A stretch of DNA of 8,576 bases. Origin: a virus. Below the pieces are notes generated by a model, which saw nothing but the letters and a program-made list of their open reading frames with translations, was not told the origin of the DNA and did not search any database. The stretch lies in UHGV virus genome UHGV-1373278; one strand, written 5' to 3'. The translations under genes and the position numbers were made by a program. The stretch's first letter is position 1. The number at the start of each line of letters is the position of its first letter. Of this stretch, positions 964-8,252 are shown piece after piece.

Positions 964-1105
964 ATAGTAGTTCCATTTTTAATTAGATTAGCTTAAGCAC
1001 TTTTTGGTGATATCGAATTTTTAGCGTTTAAGGTGGCCGAGAGCACCGCGAAGCGGTTCGGGGTTCAGTGACACCCGAACTTTACCGTGGTTTCCCGCGG
1101 CGGAG

Positions 1106-1616: not shown

Positions 1617-1799
1617 TTAATCCTTTTGTTTGGCAGACATGAGATCTTCTGCTGCATCTTTAGAGTAGTTATCAATCAGATAACCTAAAATCTCTGTCCA
1701 TGTAATTGTTTTTCCTAGTTTTACACTGGCATTTATAGCCAGTCGTTCTAGTTTCATTTTTCTTTCTTCCGTCACGTTATAAGTCGTGCGCTTTGCCAT
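1617..1799 (-). CDS. Small DNA-binding regulator candidate (60 aa, ribbon-helix-helix-like)
   Basis: ATG at 1799-1797. N-terminal pattern KRTTYNVTEERKMKLERLA (beta strand then helix) with a G-K-T helix cap fits an RHH (Arc/CopG-like) fold. Divergent from gII across a repeat-rich intergenic region, the position expected for a phage repressor. Confidence 0.5.
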   Translation of the reverse strand: MAKRTTYNVTEERKMKLERLAINASVKLGKTITWTEILGYLIDNYSKDAAEDLMSAKQKD

Positions 1800-1839: not shown

Positions 1840-1968
1840 ATGCTCATGAACTCATATCATCCAAGCCTCTTGAACTCACTAGCTCACTGGTGTAATGTTA
1901 AAACACTAATGAACTACTGAACTCATGTGTTAGTAAGTCGTCATTTTTGCAATTTTGAGGATTTATTC
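1840..1968 (+). promoter_or_regulatory. gII upstream control region: iterated TGAACT(C/A)(A/C) repeats and a candidate sigma70 promoter; possible (+) origin region
   Basis: Four direct copies of TGAACTCA-like octamers at 1847-1854, 1871-1878, 1911-1918 and 1919-1926. Candidate -35 TTGAAC (1870-1875), 17-nt spacer, -10 TAATGT (1893-1898). GAGG (1957-1960) lies 8 nt before the GTG at 1969. Several short dyad symmetries (TCATGA, TGAGT/ACTCA) at 1830-1855. Confidence 0.4.
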
Positions 1969-3021
1969 GTGATCGATTGGCTTACCGGGATTTTCCCTTG
2001 CACACACAAACCGCTTCCGGCGGGGAGTGTTGTCAGCGTTGATGCTGACGGTGCAATTGAGTGGGAAACCGTTAAGCGACTGACTGTTCGCGGTTCGCAT
2101 GAAGCAACGATGAAAGTACGATCGATAGGATCTAATGGCGAAGGTAAAGCGACACATTTGTACATTGATGGTAATCCTTCCAAGTTTCTGCAGGGGCATT
2201 CTGTTGTTGGGTCGGATGATATACAAGGGCTCATGTTGACGGTCTATGCCAGGATTTTATCCTTATTGAATATTCCTCATGATTTAGCGTCTTATAAAGC
2301 CGTTATGGCAGGTCAGTATAAAATTTCACGTGTTGACATTAATTACATGTATTCATTATCTACGCTGGAAAATGTCAGATCATGGCTTTATGCCGCCGAA
2401 TTTAAAGCTAAAACACGCCATGGTCGCGCATGTGGGAAAGGCGGTACAGTTTATTTAGGTAAAAACTCCCGTCGATGGAGTCTGAAATTTTATTCAAAAT
2501 ATGATGAACACGTTTCTGGTAAAAAAGGGCACCAGATAGCCGAAGAGTTTGTACGAGCCGGGTTACTGGACTGGACGAAAGATAAATTACGTATTGAATT
2601 AACATTAAGAACAACTGAGCTTATTGATTTAAATTTAACGCTTGGCGCTAACTGGAATATGAAAACACCACGTCAATTATTCTCTGAATATGTAGGGAGA
2701 ATAGAAATGAATCAGAATGCTATTTTAAGTGATGAAAAAATAACGAAACTGCCAAGAAAAATACAGTCAACTTATTTACTTTGGAAACAAGGGGCTAACA
2801 TGAAAGAAATGTTACCTCATAACACTTTTTATCGCCATAGAAGAGAATTGCTTTCGTTCGGTATCGATATTAATTTCTATTGTGATTCACCAGACTCTAA
2901 TAACGTTGTTCCGCTAATAAGAACGCTGGAAGCCAAGCCAGCGGAAATCCCCTTATGGATTTATGAGAAAGGTTTTATTTTCGATTACAACCGTATTTCG
3001 CACGCCAGTAGCTGGCATTAA
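1969..3021 (+). CDS. II: Replication initiation protein pII (rolling-circle nickase), Ff gene II homolog
   Basis: No in-frame ATG near the 5' end, so a GTG start is inferred. GTG at 1969 has a GAGG RBS 8 nt upstream and gives MIDWLTG..., like Ff pII MIDMLVL... The alternative GTG at 1927 lacks an RBS. C-terminal region contains NVVPLIR, as in Ff pII (NVVPLVR). First gene in the Ff order. Confidence 0.8.
   Translation: MIDWLTGIFPCTHKPLPAGSVVSVDADGAIEWETVKRLTVRGSHEATMKVRSIGSNGEGKATHLYIDGNPSKFLQGHSVVGSDDIQGLMLTVYARILSLLNIPHDLASYKAVMAGQYKISRVDINYMYSLSTLENVRSWLYAAEFKAKTRHGRACGKGGTVYLGKNSRRWSLKFYSKYDEHVSGKKGHQIAEEFVRAGLLDWTKDKLRIELTLRTTELIDLNLTLGANWNMKTPRQLFSEYVGRIEMNQNAILSDEKITKLPRKIQSTYLLWKQGANMKEMLPHNTFYRHRRELLSFGIDINFYCDSPDSNNVVPLIRTLEAKPAEIPLWIYEKGFIFDYNRISHASSWH
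2707..3021 (+). CDS. X: pX, in-frame internal translation product of gene II (104 aa)
   Basis: In-frame ATG at 2707 preceded by AGGGAGA (2694-2700) with a 6-nt spacer. Product starts MNQNAILSDE, like Ff pX MNIYDDSAVL. An alternative in-frame ATG at about 2660 (MKTPRQ...) is possible. Confidence 0.55.
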   Translation: MNQNAILSDEKITKLPRKIQSTYLLWKQGANMKEMLPHNTFYRHRRELLSFGIDINFYCDSPDSNNVVPLIRTLEAKPAEIPLWIYEKGFIFDYNRISHASSWH

Positions 3022-3032
3022 AGGAAAGTAAT

Positions 3033-3350
3033 ATGTCTAATTATGGTCTTTTCGTTAAGGGTAAAATGTTGGGAGCCCGCCAACGTAATAAAGTTAATGG
3101 TCAGGGCTATTATAATGAAATTGGTATTGGCCTTGAAATACCTGATGGTTTTGGTGGTACAAAGCAGGATCAAATTATTATTCGAGTTTCTCAGGCTCTC
3201 GTTAACGCAGGTCTAATGAACCAGGCGAATGCTTTCATTGGGAAATTAGTTCAAATTCCTGTCTATGTCCGTGCGTGGTCAATGGAGGGTAGGGAAGGTG
3301 TAACTTATAATGTTTCTTCCGATGGTGGCATCGCAGAGATCAAAGGTTAA
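3033..3350 (+). CDS. V: Putative ssDNA-binding protein at the gene V position (105 aa; not recognisably Ff pV-like)
   Basis: ATG at 3033 with AGGA RBS (3022-3025) immediately after the gII stop. Size and position match gene V, but the sequence is Gly-rich and basic and does not match Ff/IKe pV from memory. Confidence 0.6.
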   Translation: MSNYGLFVKGKMLGARQRNKVNGQGYYNEIGIGLEIPDGFGGTKQDQIIIRVSQALVNAGLMNQANAFIGKLVQIPVYVRAWSMEGREGVTYNVSSDGGIAEIKG

Positions 3351-3352
3351 AT

Positions 3353-3439
3353 ATGGACGATGTTATTCAAATTTTGATAGCGTCTGGCATCGTTATTTCT
3401 TTTGGCCTCGGCGCGATTACTGCGGGGGTCTTTCGTTAA
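3353..3439 (+). CDS. VII: Minor coat protein pVII (28 aa)
   Basis: ATG at 3353. Small hydrophobic protein MDDVIQILIASGIVISFGLGAITAGVFR resembles Ff pVII (...ALGIIAGGQR). Stop TAA at 3437-3439 overlaps the next start (TAATG). Confidence 0.6.
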   Translation: MDDVIQILIASGIVISFGLGAITAGVFR

Positions 3440-3805: not shown

Positions 3806-3830
3806 AGGGGCACTCGTTGCCCCTTTATTA
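3806..3830 (+). terminator. Rho-independent terminator after gene VIII
   Basis: Perfect 7-bp stem AGGGGCA (3806-3812) / TGCCCCT (3818-3824) with loop CTCGT, followed by TTTATT. Same position as the strong terminator after gene VIII in Ff phages. Confidence 0.7.
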
Positions 3831-3842
3831 AAGCGGGTTACT

Positions 3843-5165
3843 ATGAGAAGGAAAATATTAATTCTTTCCGCTGTCCTCATTTCTCCTTTTTCACATGCTG
3901 AGTCATGGGAAAGCATTACTAAATCCACTTATCAAAGTTCTGCCTACGCTGAAAGTAAGCAAATAACCAATCAGGATGGCTCTAAGATAACGGTTTACTA
4001 TATTGATGCTGCTATGCAGGCCTCCGCTTGTCAGGGTGCTAAATCCAGTGCTCAGAGTGTATTTACTCGGATTAAACCAACTTATGAGGGTATCTGGCCT
4101 GATTCTGAATTCCGTCTTGTTTTTACTGGCGATTGTACTTACAGCGATTCACCAGGGCAGAAGGATAAATATTGGTCTTTAACGGCTTATATTGTTGGTA
4201 ATATTCAGCGTTCTGTTCCTGATGAAAAACCTACTGACCCGACACCAGAAGAAATTTGTGAAGCGAAGCCGCCAGAAGAAGGTGTATTTAATAATGTTGA
4301 TTCATATGATGGTGGTCGCTATATCTACTATAACGGCTGTGAATATGAGGCTACTGGTGTCATTGTTTGTCAGGGTGATGGTACTGTTTGCGCTGCAACA
4401 TGGAAGCCTACAGGTGCTGTAGCTGACCCCTCTGATAAACCCTCAACCCCCCAAAATGGTGGTGGTGAGTCTGGCGGTGGTGAGTCCAGCGGTGGTGAGT
4501 CCAGCGGTGGTGAGTCTGGCGGTGGTGAGTCCGGCGGTGGTGAGTCCGGTGGTGGTGAGTCCGGCGGTGGTGAGTCTGGCGGTGGTGAGTCCGGTGGCGG
4601 TAGTTCTGGCGGTAGTTCTGGCGGTGGCTCTAGTGGTTCCAGTCTTTCTAAAGGTGATATTCAGTCTGCGATCGAAGGTGCTTCACCCAAAATAGCCAGC
4701 GATATTCATGATAAATTAACGGAGAAAGACACTTCATCAGATGATAAAAAAAATGCCGATGAACAAACCAGGAATAATATAAATCGTCTTGACGATTCCA
4801 TTAACAATCTTACGCGGGGGGCTGGCCGTTTTGCTGACCCTTCAGGTGGTGATTCTCGTTATGGAAAGGGCGACTCTGAATTAGATGGCGCTTCTACTTT
4901 GGCTGATTCTGAATTGGGAATTGAAAAGGATTCTCACGGTGCTTTATGGGAAGCGTTTTTAAATAAAGGTGCTATGCTGCCTAATTTACCCAATGGTAAC
5001 GGCTGCTCTGATTTTATTATTTTTCCCGGAGAGGTTTATCAGATTGATATTGGTTGCGATAAATTACTGACTATTAAAGATGTTCTTTCATGGGTTTTTT
5101 ATTGCCTTACGTTCTGGTATGTCTTTACTTCTTTAACTTCATTGCTTCGCAAAGGGGGTGAGTGA
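3843..5165 (+). CDS. III: Minor coat / adsorption protein pIII (440 aa)
   Basis: ATG at 3843 with signal peptide [19 protein letters not shown]. Cys motif [25 protein letters not shown] resembles the Ff N1 TolA-binding motif (CLWNATGVVVCTGDETQCYGTWVP). GGGES-repeat linker follows. C-terminal ...[40 protein letters not shown] resembles the Ff pIII C-terminus. The 3699 ORF-track start is an out-of-context upstream extension overlapping gVIII. Confidence 0.9.
4458..4640 (+). repeat. Tandem 15-bp in-frame repeat array encoding the (G-G-E-S-G/S) linker of pIII
   Basis: Nine near-identical 15-bp units GGTGGTGAGTC(T/C)(G/A)GC(G/T) from about 4461 to 4595, then degenerate Gly/Ser codons to about 4640. 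Confidence 0.85.
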
Positions 5166-5506
5166 TGCCTTTATTATTAGGTATTCCTGCATTGTTGCGT
5201 TTTCTTATTGGTCTTGTTCCTTTGTTTATTGGCTATGTGGCGAGTTTTTTAGCTCGACTTGCTACCAGAACAGGATTAATCGCCTTTGCATTGGTCGCAT
5301 TAATTACAACAACTGTTACGCTTTTAATGCAGTACCTTGCTGAGGTCATGTATAACGGTTTACCTGCTGATTTCTCCCATTTAATGGCGTCTGTATTGCC
5401 TGACCATTTTCAGGCGTGTGTTAACGTTATTATGGTTACTCGTATCAGTGTTTTTGTTTTCGATTTAAAACAAAAGTTTCTTGATTATGCAAACAGGGTG
5501 ATTTAA
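5165..5506 (+). CDS. VI: Minor coat protein pVI (113 aa)
   Basis: ATG at 5165 overlapping the gIII stop TGA (ATGA). [24 protein letters not shown]... resembles Ff pVI (MPVLLGIPLLLRFLGFLLVTLFGY...). C-terminal FVFDLKQKF matches Ff FIFDVKQKI. Confidence 0.9.
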   Translation: MPLLLGIPALLRFLIGLVPLFIGYVASFLARLATRTGLIAFALVALITTTVTLLMQYLAEVMYNGLPADFSHLMASVLPDHFQACVNVIMVTRISVFVFDLKQKFLDYANRVI

Positions 5507-6601
5507 ATGGCGGTTTATGTAGTAACAGGCAAATTAGGCTCAGGCAAGACACTTGTTAGTGTTTCCAGAATACAGGAAAGACTTGCTAAGGGTTGTCCTG
5601 TTGCCACTAATCTTGATCTTAAATTGCATAATATGCCTATGGTTGGGCGTTATGCGAAAAAAACGCGCGTTATTCGCATTCCTGACAAGCCTTCATTAAA
5701 TGATTTACTTGCTATTGGTATTGGGAATACATCTTACGATGAATCCCGTAATGGCCTCCTTGTACTTGATGAATGTGGTACTTGGTTTAATTCCCGCTCA
5801 TGGGGTGATAAAGACAGACAACCTGTTATTGACTGGTTTTTACATGCCAGAAAATTAGGCTGGGATATTATATTTTTGATTCAGGATATTTCGATAATGG
5901 ATAAGCAAGCTCGTCTGGCGCTTGCTGAGCATGTTGTTTATTGTCGCCGTTCAGATAAATTAAACATTCCTTTTGTTGGCTCCATTATGAATTTGGTTTC
6001 AGGGGCGAGATTTTCTTTACCAAAGGTACACTTTGGCATTGTCAAATATGGTGATAATGTTAATTCAATCACTGTTGATAAATGGATATATACAGGAAAA
6101 TCTCTTTATTCTGCTTACAATACCAAACAAGCGTTCACAGATAATTATCCTCATGGCGCATTTTCGCTTTTGCCACCATTTATCACGCACGGTCAATTTT
6201 CTGTTCACAGAGGATTTAATTATTATATGCGCCTCACTAAAATTTATTTTCGCAAATCGAACCGTCTTATATTAATGCTTTCTTTTTTGGCGCTGGGGCT
6301 TGCGTTTGGTTTCTGGCTCCAGTCTGGAAAGAATGTTGATGAAATCTCAGCTATTAAATCTGCTTATGCTGAACAGGCGAGGGCGGTAACGCCTGATTCG
6401 TCCAGTAACTTACCCCGACTTTCTATTAATTCTTTTTCACAACTTGGCTTTGACGTTTCCGTTACGTTTGTTGATGCTAAAGGTATGAAATATCAGTATT
6501 TTGATTTGATTAAAGATGGTTATTCCGTTGATATTAAAGATGCCTGTCGTGTTGTTATTAGAAAAGGCCGTTATTTACAGACTGTTACCTGTCAGGAGTA
6601 A
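5507..6601 (+). CDS. I: Assembly ATPase pI (Zot-like, 364 aa)
   Basis: ATG at 5507 immediately after the gVI stop. N-terminus MAVYVVTGKLGSGKTLVSV (Walker A) is nearly identical to Ff pI MAVYFVTGKLGSGKTLVSV. Extensive similarity continues (LLVLDECGTWFN, IIDWFLHARKLGWDIIFL). Confidence 0.9.
   Translation: MAVYVVTGKLGSGKTLVSVSRIQERLAKGCPVATNLDLKLHNMPMVGRYAKKTRVIRIPDKPSLNDLLAIGIGNTSYDESRNGLLVLDECGTWFNSRSWGDKDRQPVIDWFLHARKLGWDIIFLIQDISIMDKQARLALAEHVVYCRRSDKLNIPFVGSIMNLVSGARFSLPKVHFGIVKYGDNVNSITVDKWIYTGKSLYSAYNTKQAFTDNYPHGAFSLLPPFITHGQFSVHRGFNYYMRLTKIYFRKSNRLILMLSFLALGLAFGFWLQSGKNVDEISAIKSAYAEQARAVTPDSSSNLPRLSINSFSQLGFDVSVTFVDAKGMKYQYFDLIKDGYSVDIKDACRVVIRKGRYLQTVTCQE
6227..6601 (+). CDS. XI: pXI, in-frame internal translation product of gene I (124 aa)
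   Basis: In-frame ATG at residue 241 of pI (MRLTKIYFRKSN...), the same position and context as Ff pXI (Met241, MKLTKIYLKKF...), followed by a TM segment. Purine-rich AGAGGA lies about 12 nt upstream. Confidence 0.5.
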   Translation: MRLTKIYFRKSNRLILMLSFLALGLAFGFWLQSGKNVDEISAIKSAYAEQARAVTPDSSSNLPRLSINSFSQLGFDVSVTFVDAKGMKYQYFDLIKDGYSVDIKDACRVVIRKGRYLQTVTCQE

Positions 6602-6608
6602 TATTATT

Positions 6609-7874
6609 ATGCGCTCTGTTATTGTTGCTTTTTTATTTGCCTGTTCATTCTGCGTTTCTGCTGAAACTGTTAATTTAAATAATTCATCTGTTCGCTCATT
6701 TGTTCAGTGGTATTCTTCAAAAACTGGCAAGCCTGTTATTGTTAATCCTGATATTAAAGGAAACGTAACCGTATTTAATGCTGATGTTAATCCAGCAAAT
6801 ATTGATGATTTCTTTAAGTCTGTTCTGAATGCTAACGGTTTTGTCATGCTTTCTGGCAATCCTGCGGTAGTCTCTTTGCCGTCTAAATTACCTTCACAGA
6901 TGGTTTCGGATTCCGATGATTCTGATAACCAGTCTTATGATACTTTTCCTTCTGAGCCATCTTACCAGCCAGTACCTGTGGCGCTTACGGTCAGAAATTT
7001 TAAGCTGACAAAAGTTAGATCGTCCGATGTTCAGCAACTGATTAAAATTTATCTTGATTCTAATGGTGGTGGTAATGTCGTGGATTATCCAGGCAATAAC
7101 TCGCTGATTGTTTCTGCGCCTGACGAGCTGCTGCCGGTTCTGTCCGATTTTATCAATTCTGTGGATGTTGCCCGCGATCAGGTTCTCATTCAGTCGCTGA
7201 TGTTTGAAACCAGCTTGTCTGATGGCGTTGATTTATCGTTTGCGGCAGGTTCTGCATCCGGTCATAAGGTTGCGGGGGGCTTTAATACTTCTGCACTGGG
7301 TAGCGCTCTTTCTACGGCGGGCGGTTCTTTTGGTATTTTTGATGGTAACGTGTTGGCGCTGTCTCTGCGTGCTGTCCAGAGTAATTCACGCTCTAAGGTG
7401 ATTTCAACGCCGCGTATTCTTACTCAGTCTGGTCAGACTGGTTACATTTCCGTAGGTAAGAATGTGCCGTTTATCACCGGAAAGGTAACGGGCGAATCTG
7501 CCGGGGTAAATAATCCGTTTCAGACTATCGAGCGTCATGATGTTGGCGTTTCTCTCAAGGTAACGCCTGTTGTCATGGGTAACGGGCAACTAGTTCTGAC
7601 TATCGACACTCGCGCTGATTCAATCAGCAATGATGATCAGGCATCCGATATTATTACTAATCAGCGCCAGATTCAGACGACAGTCCAGATTAAGGATGGT
7701 CAGACGTTGTTATTGGGGGGGCTTATCGATTCATCGTTCAGCAATGCCGAGCGTTCAGTTCCAGTTATAAGTAAAATTCCTCTTATAGGCTGGATTTTCA
7801 GTAGCAAGGCAGACAGCAATGAACAGCGTATTATGTATATTTTGCTTACAGCACATATCATTCGTCCACTTTGA
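6609..7874 (+). CDS. IV: Outer-membrane secretin pIV (421 aa)
   Basis: ATG at 6609 with AGGAG (6594-6598) about 10 nt upstream. Signal peptide MRSVIVAFLFACSFCVSA. Strong similarity to Ff pIV throughout (VRSFVQWYSS..., NVPFITGKVTGESAGVNNPFQTIERHDVG..., DGQTLLLGGL..., SKIPLIGW-FSS). The 6516 ORF-track start is an upstream extension inside gI. Confidence 0.9.
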   Translation: MRSVIVAFLFACSFCVSAETVNLNNSSVRSFVQWYSSKTGKPVIVNPDIKGNVTVFNADVNPANIDDFFKSVLNANGFVMLSGNPAVVSLPSKLPSQMVSDSDDSDNQSYDTFPSEPSYQPVPVALTVRNFKLTKVRSSDVQQLIKIYLDSNGGGNVVDYPGNNSLIVSAPDELLPVLSDFINSVDVARDQVLIQSLMFETSLSDGVDLSFAAGSASGHKVAGGFNTSALGSALSTAGGSFGIFDGNVLALSLRAVQSNSRSKVISTPRILTQSGQTGYISVGKNVPFITGKVTGESAGVNNPFQTIERHDVGVSLKVTPVVMGNGQLVLTIDTRADSISNDDQASDIITNQRQIQTTVQIKDGQTLLLGGLIDSSFSNAERSVPVISKIPLIGWIFSSKADSNEQRIMYILLTAHIIRPL

Positions 7875-7943: not shown

Positions 7944-8252
7944 ATGGATTCTTATGGGATTTTATCTGCTCTGGCAGAACGAACGATTACAGCGGAAGAA
8001 GCAAAAACAATGACACTTGCAGCCAGAAGTTCTTCGGCTCAGGTAAATGAAGCATCACTTGCTCTGTTACTGATTGATAATACTCTGGATGCGATCAAAG
8101 CAGCTGCCAGTGAAGGGAAAGGATACACTTTACTTCCTTCTTATGAGATTTCTGTAAAAGCCATTGATTTAGCAGAAGAATTTTTAAGGAAACAATGCGG
8201 CTATGTTATTGATAACCAGAATGGCGTAAGGACGGTCTATTGGTTTATATGA
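7944..8252 (+). CDS. Hypothetical protein (102 aa), accessory ORF downstream of gIV
   Basis: ATG at 7944 with a weak GGGG(T) SD-like element. Ala/Leu-rich, predicted largely helical, no signal peptide. No recognisable homology from memory. Followed by a structured region and a T7 run (8319-8325). Confidence 0.45.
   Translation: MDSYGILSALAERTITAEEAKTMTLAARSSSAQVNEASLALLLIDNTLDAIKAAASEGKGYTLLPSYEISVKAIDLAEEFLRKQCGYVIDNQNGVRTVYWFI

Follow-up and report, generated by a model that had tools for sequence, protein, structure and literature searches.

An IKe-type attachment protein in a filamentous prophage of Escherichia coli that probably belongs to the dif-integrating UPφ group

The viral DNA analysed here (UHGV-1373278; 8,576 nucleotides over its whole length, referred to as the window) carries a gene III whose product, the attachment protein G3P or pIII, is built differently from that of the Ff phages fd, M13 and f1. 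This raises the question of whether the protein contains a novel receptor-binding domain or only an arrangement that is known from other filamentous phages, and which primary receptor it would use. The window comprises the whole genome of an inovirus as a prophage, with all core inovirus genes intact. Its features are as follows.

163-963, 1106-1675 and 1617-1799, minus strand: three left-end ORFs
1927-3021, plus strand: gII (Pfam Phage_CRI and G2P_X_C)
3033-3350, plus strand: gV (Pfam PF17426 'Putative_G5P', E=3e-51)
3353-3439, plus strand: gVII-like ORF of 28 codons
3554-3796, plus strand: gVIII (Pfam Phage_coatGP8)
3843-5165, plus strand: gene III, attachment protein G3P/pIII (440 aa and stop; ORF intact in translation)
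5162-5506, plus strand: gVI (Pfam DUF5455)
5507-6601, plus strand: gI (Zot)
about 6609-7874, plus strand: gIV (secretin)
7944-8252, plus strand: small ORF

Gene III is thus flanked by gVIII and gVI. Its ATG at 3843 corresponds to the first residue of the IKe and I2-2 pIII proteins in the alignment, and the NCBI protein P0001, an 'attachment protein' of 440 aa, is identical to the product (100% identity, 100% coverage). The start was therefore fixed at 3843. The database entry of P0001 is already annotated with both Pfam domains that are discussed below. Between gVIII and gIII, at 3806-3829, a hairpin (AGGGGCA-n5-TGCCCCT) is followed by TTTATT; in IKe, this position has a stem-loop with an annotation as potential terminator of transcription.

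The protein could be divided into the following segments.

3843-3899, plus strand: signal peptide, residues 1-19 (aligns to the annotated 19-aa IKe signal peptide; the mature 4EO0 construct aligns from residue 20)
3900-4226, plus strand: D1, residues 20-128, IKe-type G3P pilus-binding domain and presumed binder of the primary receptor (phmmer, Pfam, AF2/Foldseek)
4218-4250, plus strand: Pro/Glu-rich connector between D1 and D2, residues about 126-136, not Gly-rich (alignment with IKe, I2-2 and PEar1; dip in pLDDT)
4230-4427, plus strand: D2, residues 130-195, predicted TolA-binding domain and homologue of Ff N1 (PDB, Pfam and AF2 matches)
4458-4640, plus strand: single Gly-rich linker, residues 206-266, (GGGES)n followed by GGS/GSS
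4641-5162, plus strand: C-terminal domain (CT) with hydrophobic anchor, residues 267-440 (aligns to the fd G3P CT)

The first-pass annotation had pointed out a single Gly-rich linker, and translation and TRF agree that residues 206-266 form the only such stretch in the gene III product. The linker is coded by a 15-nt tandem repeat of about ten copies (TRF: period 15, 10.2 copies at 4461-4613, with repeat sequence over 4458-4625). Its length varies: the proteins of cluster P0002 are 100% identical to the window protein in every domain and 15 aa shorter in the linker. The copy number of GGGES has been described as the main difference in g3p between UPφ isolates (PMC7307601).

The N-terminal part had been regarded as unrecognisable, which did not hold. 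In a phmmer search against PDB sequences, the top match was chain 4eo0_A (E=3.3e-26, query 20-128 over chain residues 2-110), and Pfam assigned residues 22-125 to PF21443, G3P_pilus-bind, with 89.1 bits against a cutoff of 27 (E=2.5e-25). 4EO0 is the pilus-binding domain of IKe pIII. The crystal structures of both IKe domains, 4EO0 and 4EO1, were released in 2012, and D1 is also a Pfam family. In IKe p3, D1 binds the pilus and D2 binds TolA, as summarised in a passage of PMC6431161 that cites Jakob et al. 2012.

The Cys-rich motif at 4335-4409 corresponds to residues 165-189 and aligns to N1 of fd/M13, so that its proposed likeness to Ff N1 was sound. It is part of a larger domain. D2 gave the second-best PDB match with 4eo1_A (E=3.9e-25, query 130-195), followed by the N1 entries of fd/M13 G3P (8b3o, 1tol, 2g3p, 1g3p and 1fgp) with E-values between 5e-19 and 1e-10, and it scored 25.6 bits with Pfam PF05357 (Phage_Coat_A; cutoff 20.8). 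Its start near residue 130 corresponds to ESCLAKP in fd. The four cysteines C139, C166, C176 and C183 are in register with C7, C36, C46 and C53 of fd and are invariant across 31 homologues. The stretch of about 180 residues that had been described as lacking similarity to Ff N1 and N2 is indeed unlike Ff in its N-terminal part, but because the N1-like domain begins near residue 130 and is larger than the 25-residue motif, the non-Ff part comprises only 109 aa, residues 20-128.

A structure of residues 20-205 was modelled with AF2 from an alignment of 31 homologues (mean pLDDT 93.6, pTM 0.56). It contains two domains with the folds of IKe D1 and D2. The pLDDT falls to 82-83 in the model blocks 101-120, that is, protein residues 120-139, around the connector between D1 and D2. 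A pTM of 0.56 beside a pLDDT of 93.6 is consistent with two domains that, in the model, would have no fixed relative orientation. The best match of D1 in a Foldseek search against the PDB was 4EO0 with a TM score of 0.95 on the target, an rmsd of 1.2 Å over 106 columns and 46% identity. D2 was most similar to 4EO1, the TolA-binding domain of IKe (TM 0.90, rmsd 1.1 Å, 71% identity). After these two entries, the next PDB matches were N1 structures of fd/M13 and If1.

The pIII proteins of the window, IKe, I2-2 and PEar1 are collinear in a four-way alignment from the signal peptide to the C-terminus, and all four have the Pro/Glu connector (SVPDE-P...) and a single Gly-rich linker. What appears odd beside Ff is therefore how pIII is normally organised in the IKe/I2-2 lineage. 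When pIII was compared by tblastn with 50,697 phage genomes, only IKe, I2-2 and the Erwinia phages PEar1, PEar2, PEar4 and PEar6 were found, essentially over the full length and with 53-55% identity. A megablast search of the whole window against phage genomes gave small patches only, namely about 190 bp of gIV with 80% identity to IKe and PEar and 58 bp to If1; the relationship to IKe is thus visible at the protein level only. The If1 patch (window 1043-1100) matches the annotated 'major intergenic region' of If1 with 94.8% identity and is the only nucleotide similarity to this phage. Either a conserved hairpin (origin, packaging or terminator) or a remnant of recombination could explain it.

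These results bear on two other readings of the protein. A conventional Ff-type pIII (N1, linker, N2, linker, CT) that had merely been misparsed would account for the presence of both an N1 homologue and a CT homologue, but the N1 homologue is the second domain (residues 130-195, after D1) and there is only one Gly-rich stretch. Ff N2 was not found: none of the fd G3P matches obtained with phmmer against the PDB extended to fd residues 87-217, and Foldseek against the PDB returned no N2-type fold. The fd matches were limited to N1 (fd residues 5-86) and CT (fd 217-403), the latter with query 226-437 in 8b3o, a cryo-EM entry of the virion tip. We give the Ff-type reading practically no chance. 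Scarcely more credible is a receptor-binding domain or domain order new to characterised filamentous phages. It was suggested by the N-terminal domain without similarity to Ff N1 or N2 and by the one Gly linker, but D1 matches the IKe pilus-binding domain in sequence (E=3e-26) as well as in fold (TM 0.95), the same order and single linker occur in IKe, I2-2 and PEar1, and the identical database protein carries both Pfam domains. Of the earlier proposal of a different domain order or a novel receptor domain, the difference from Ff thus stands; the novelty does not, as order and domain are those of the IKe/I2-2 G3P. At the same time, the protein is not nearly identical to that of any characterised phage, with only 53-54% identity. 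The architecture of gene III and its N-terminal domain are therefore already known, the fold since 2012, the phage group since 2020, and an identical protein is present in annotated form.

As to the phage itself, many E. coli genomes, UM146 and F11 among them, have chromosomal prophages with 99% identity to the window. In UM146, the prophage adjoins hipBA, and a perfect 28-bp dif site marks its right end (L004 12395-12422). In the window, the 15-bp XerC-side half of dif, GGTGCGCATAATGTA, is located at 66-80, and the half after it is degenerate; a search of the window for the complete 28-bp dif of E. coli found none at up to 3 mismatches. Positions 1-65 look like the final part of another phage unit upstream, as would be consistent with prophages arrayed in tandem. 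In some genomes, the window has matches at up to 15-16 places.

UPφ phages were described as relatives of IKe and I2-2 that are integrated at dif, often in tandem, in E. coli, Salmonella, Citrobacter, Klebsiella and Yersinia (Shapiro & Putonti 2020, PMC7307601). They have reverse-oriented accessory ORFs next to dif and extra ORFs after gIV, where IKe has an intergenic region (PMC7307601). The window has the UPφ traits of gene order, dif, GGGES repeat and accessory ORFs, as judged by the published description. Homologues annotated as 'attachment protein' occur in the same five genera, E. coli, Salmonella, Citrobacter, Klebsiella and Yersinia, and 55 of the 5,426 complete E. coli genomes (∼1%) carried gene III, with few exceptions chromosomally and frequently in more than one copy. 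Gene III hence very probably belongs to a filamentous E. coli prophage of the UPφ type that is related to IKe and I2-2 and integrates at dif, and it encodes an attachment protein with the IKe-type architecture. The paper on UPφ901 does not discuss a division of pIII into D1 and D2 (PMC7307601).

An identity with CUS-1/Ypfφ had been suspected from the location at dif and hipBA and from the ExPEC hosts UM146 and F11. It was dropped because Ypfφ/CUSφ share only genes II and V with UPφ, all other genes having less than 20% identity (PMC7307601), and because an IKe-like pIII with GGGES is a signature of UPφ. UPφ genes II and V are more than 85% identical to those of Ypfφ and less than 15% similar to those of IKe (PMC7307601), while the rest is IKe-type; the genome is thus mosaic and combines a Ypfφ-type module for replication with an IKe-type module for structure and assembly. 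Partial matches to the window with 90-95% identity were obtained for about 700 E. coli records, which we suspect to have this replication module in common.

The ORF at 163-963 on the minus strand (266 aa) encodes a full-length SduA nuclease of the Shedu anti-phage defence system, judging by its profile matches (Pfam SduA_C E=2.4e-25; PADLOC PDLC00378 E=5e-111). As cargo of a filamentous prophage, this ORF is reverse-oriented and lies directly downstream of the dif-like site. The ORFs that adjoin dif in UPφ were reported as novel and of unknown function (PMC7307601). In the UM146 copy, the same slot contains a gene for an ECs_2282-family Zn-binding protein and hypothetical genes instead, which makes it a variable accessory slot; the cargo next to dif differs between copies of the UPφ-type prophage. 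A defence system carried by an inovirus may merit a separate study. Gene III was also seen with 71% nucleotide identity on the E. coli plasmid NZ_CP183160.1 (14,488 bp), which may be the replicative form of another IKe-like phage, or a dimer.

In each of the 60 homologues compared, D1 had diverged more than the other domains. Across the family, its identity to the window protein goes down to about 20-30%, and that of D2 ranges from 53 to 88%. P0025, for example, is 32% identical in D1, 88% in D2 and 64% in CT, and P0046 29, 85 and 54%, respectively. Among E. coli UPφ variants, dN/dS was 0.15 for D1 versus 0.03-0.05 for D2 and CT. For IKe and PEar1, which otherwise have about 92% identity between their genomes, dN was 0.42 in D1 and 0.06 in CT. 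The fast evolution of D1 fits what is expected for a host-range determinant, and the PEar phages of Erwinia amylovora show that, within the IKe-type family, divergence of D1 goes together with a change of host. Six relatives from Citrobacter/E. coli, Pantoea, Tatumella and metagenomes (P0049, P0053, P0055, P0056, P0058 and P0060) have 53-75% identity in D2 and 55-59% in CT. In the N-terminal domain, their identity is only 18-25%, and a precomputed PF21443 call is absent; another type of receptor-binding domain may occupy this position in the six proteins.

All domains are under purifying selection, so gene III is functional and not decaying. It is very unlikely that it is a decaying remnant in a domesticated prophage without a current infective role. 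New laboratory infections could not be established with UPφ901 (PMC7307601), as would be expected of such a remnant, but the ORF is intact, dN/dS lies between 0.03 and 0.15 over all domains, the core inovirus genes are intact, and virion DNA of UPφ901 was detected in culture filtrates (PMC7307601).

From the homology, folds, order and conservation of the domains, we infer the binding partners of a functional pIII as follows. By homology, D1 at the virion tip would capture a retractile filament on the host surface, the best candidate being a conjugative pilus bound at its tip, by analogy with IKe and I2-2 and their IncN and IncI2 pili. Retraction of the filament would bring the virion tip to the envelope, where D2 would then bind the C-terminal domain of TolA (domain III) as coreceptor, and the Gly-rich linker would give reach and flexibility. 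CT would anchor pIII in the virion cap and insert into the inner membrane, and the ssDNA would enter. TolA as the partner of D2 is suggested by 71-73% identity to the TolA-binding domain of IKe and about 48% to N1 of fd.

The primary receptor is less readily named. It had been suggested that it differs from F pili, and the sequence comparison points the same way, since an N-terminal domain unrelated to Ff N2 makes an F-pilus receptor unlikely. With only 45-47% identity between D1 of the window and D1 of IKe, I2-2 and PEar1, the receptor specificity of these phages is not transferable. UPφ901 failed to infect E. coli with IncI plasmids, including JE-1, the standard host of I2-2 (PMC7307601). 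Possible reasons are a receptor other than IncI2 pili or a very low infectivity. D1 of UPφ may thus have kept the fold of IKe and been retargeted from pili of the IncN, IncI2 or IncP type to another conjugative pilus or to a chromosomally encoded filament or surface structure. We consider this possible, if only tentatively. D1 is the fastest-evolving domain with only 47% identity to D1 of IKe and I2-2, the UPφ901 filtrates did not infect the IncI-bearing strains including JE-1, the PEar phages infect Erwinia amylovora with a strongly diverged D1 on an IKe-like backbone, and the prophage is found in the chromosomes of diverse E. coli, Salmonella, Citrobacter, Klebsiella and Yersinia. On the other hand, conjugative pili are the receptors of every characterised member of this fold family, and every isolate of the published collection that carried UPφ901 also had an IncI plasmid (PMC7307601); the failed infections may reflect only low efficiency, superinfection or culture conditions. 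If D1 was retargeted, this would explain both the failure on IncI hosts and the spread of the prophage across the Enterobacterales, and the D1 variants of the relatives, some without a PF21443 score, would form a receptor-switching series.

Whichever filament is bound, D1 (nt 3900-4226) is a defined module of 109 residues with which the receptor question can be addressed. The identity of the receptor would explain how a prophage present in ∼1% of the complete E. coli genomes, including the ExPEC strains UM146 and F11, has spread in the Enterobacterales. There is little to gain on the architecture, as the order of receptor domain and TolA domain was solved for IKe in 2012 and the UPφ group was published in 2020.

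The attachment protein is most similar in its organisation to those of IKe (NP_040576) and I2-2 (NP_039621) of the genus Lineavirus. Like these, it consists of D1, connector, a D2 with four cysteines, one linker and the CT anchor, and in IKe and I2-2, too, gene III lies between gVIII and gVI. The predicted folds of D1 and D2 superpose on the IKe domains at 1.1-1.2 Å. Overall identity to the two proteins is 53-54%, with 47% in D1, 71-73% in D2 and 52-53% in CT. The linker consists of regular (GGGES)n repeats, whereas IKe has repeats of the GGDT/GGS type, and gene III starts with ATG instead of the GTG of IKe and I2-2. Moreover, the phage of the window integrates at dif and carries cargo genes, while IKe and I2-2 are non-integrating. 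The pIII proteins of the Erwinia phages PEar1, PEar2, PEar4 and PEar6 (host Erwinia amylovora) have the same architecture with 53% identity, and their D1 is strongly diverged from that of IKe. The G3P of the Ff phages fd, M13 and f1 resembles the window protein in N1, which corresponds to D2 (E down to 5e-19, about 48% identity, four cysteines), in the homologous CT and in the presence of Gly-rich linker sequence. It differs in that Ff G3P has an N2 domain, the TolA-binding domain in first place and two Gly linkers, whereas the pIII of the window is without N2 and has the TolA-type domain second and one linker; the fold of its primary-receptor domain is unrelated to that of Ff.
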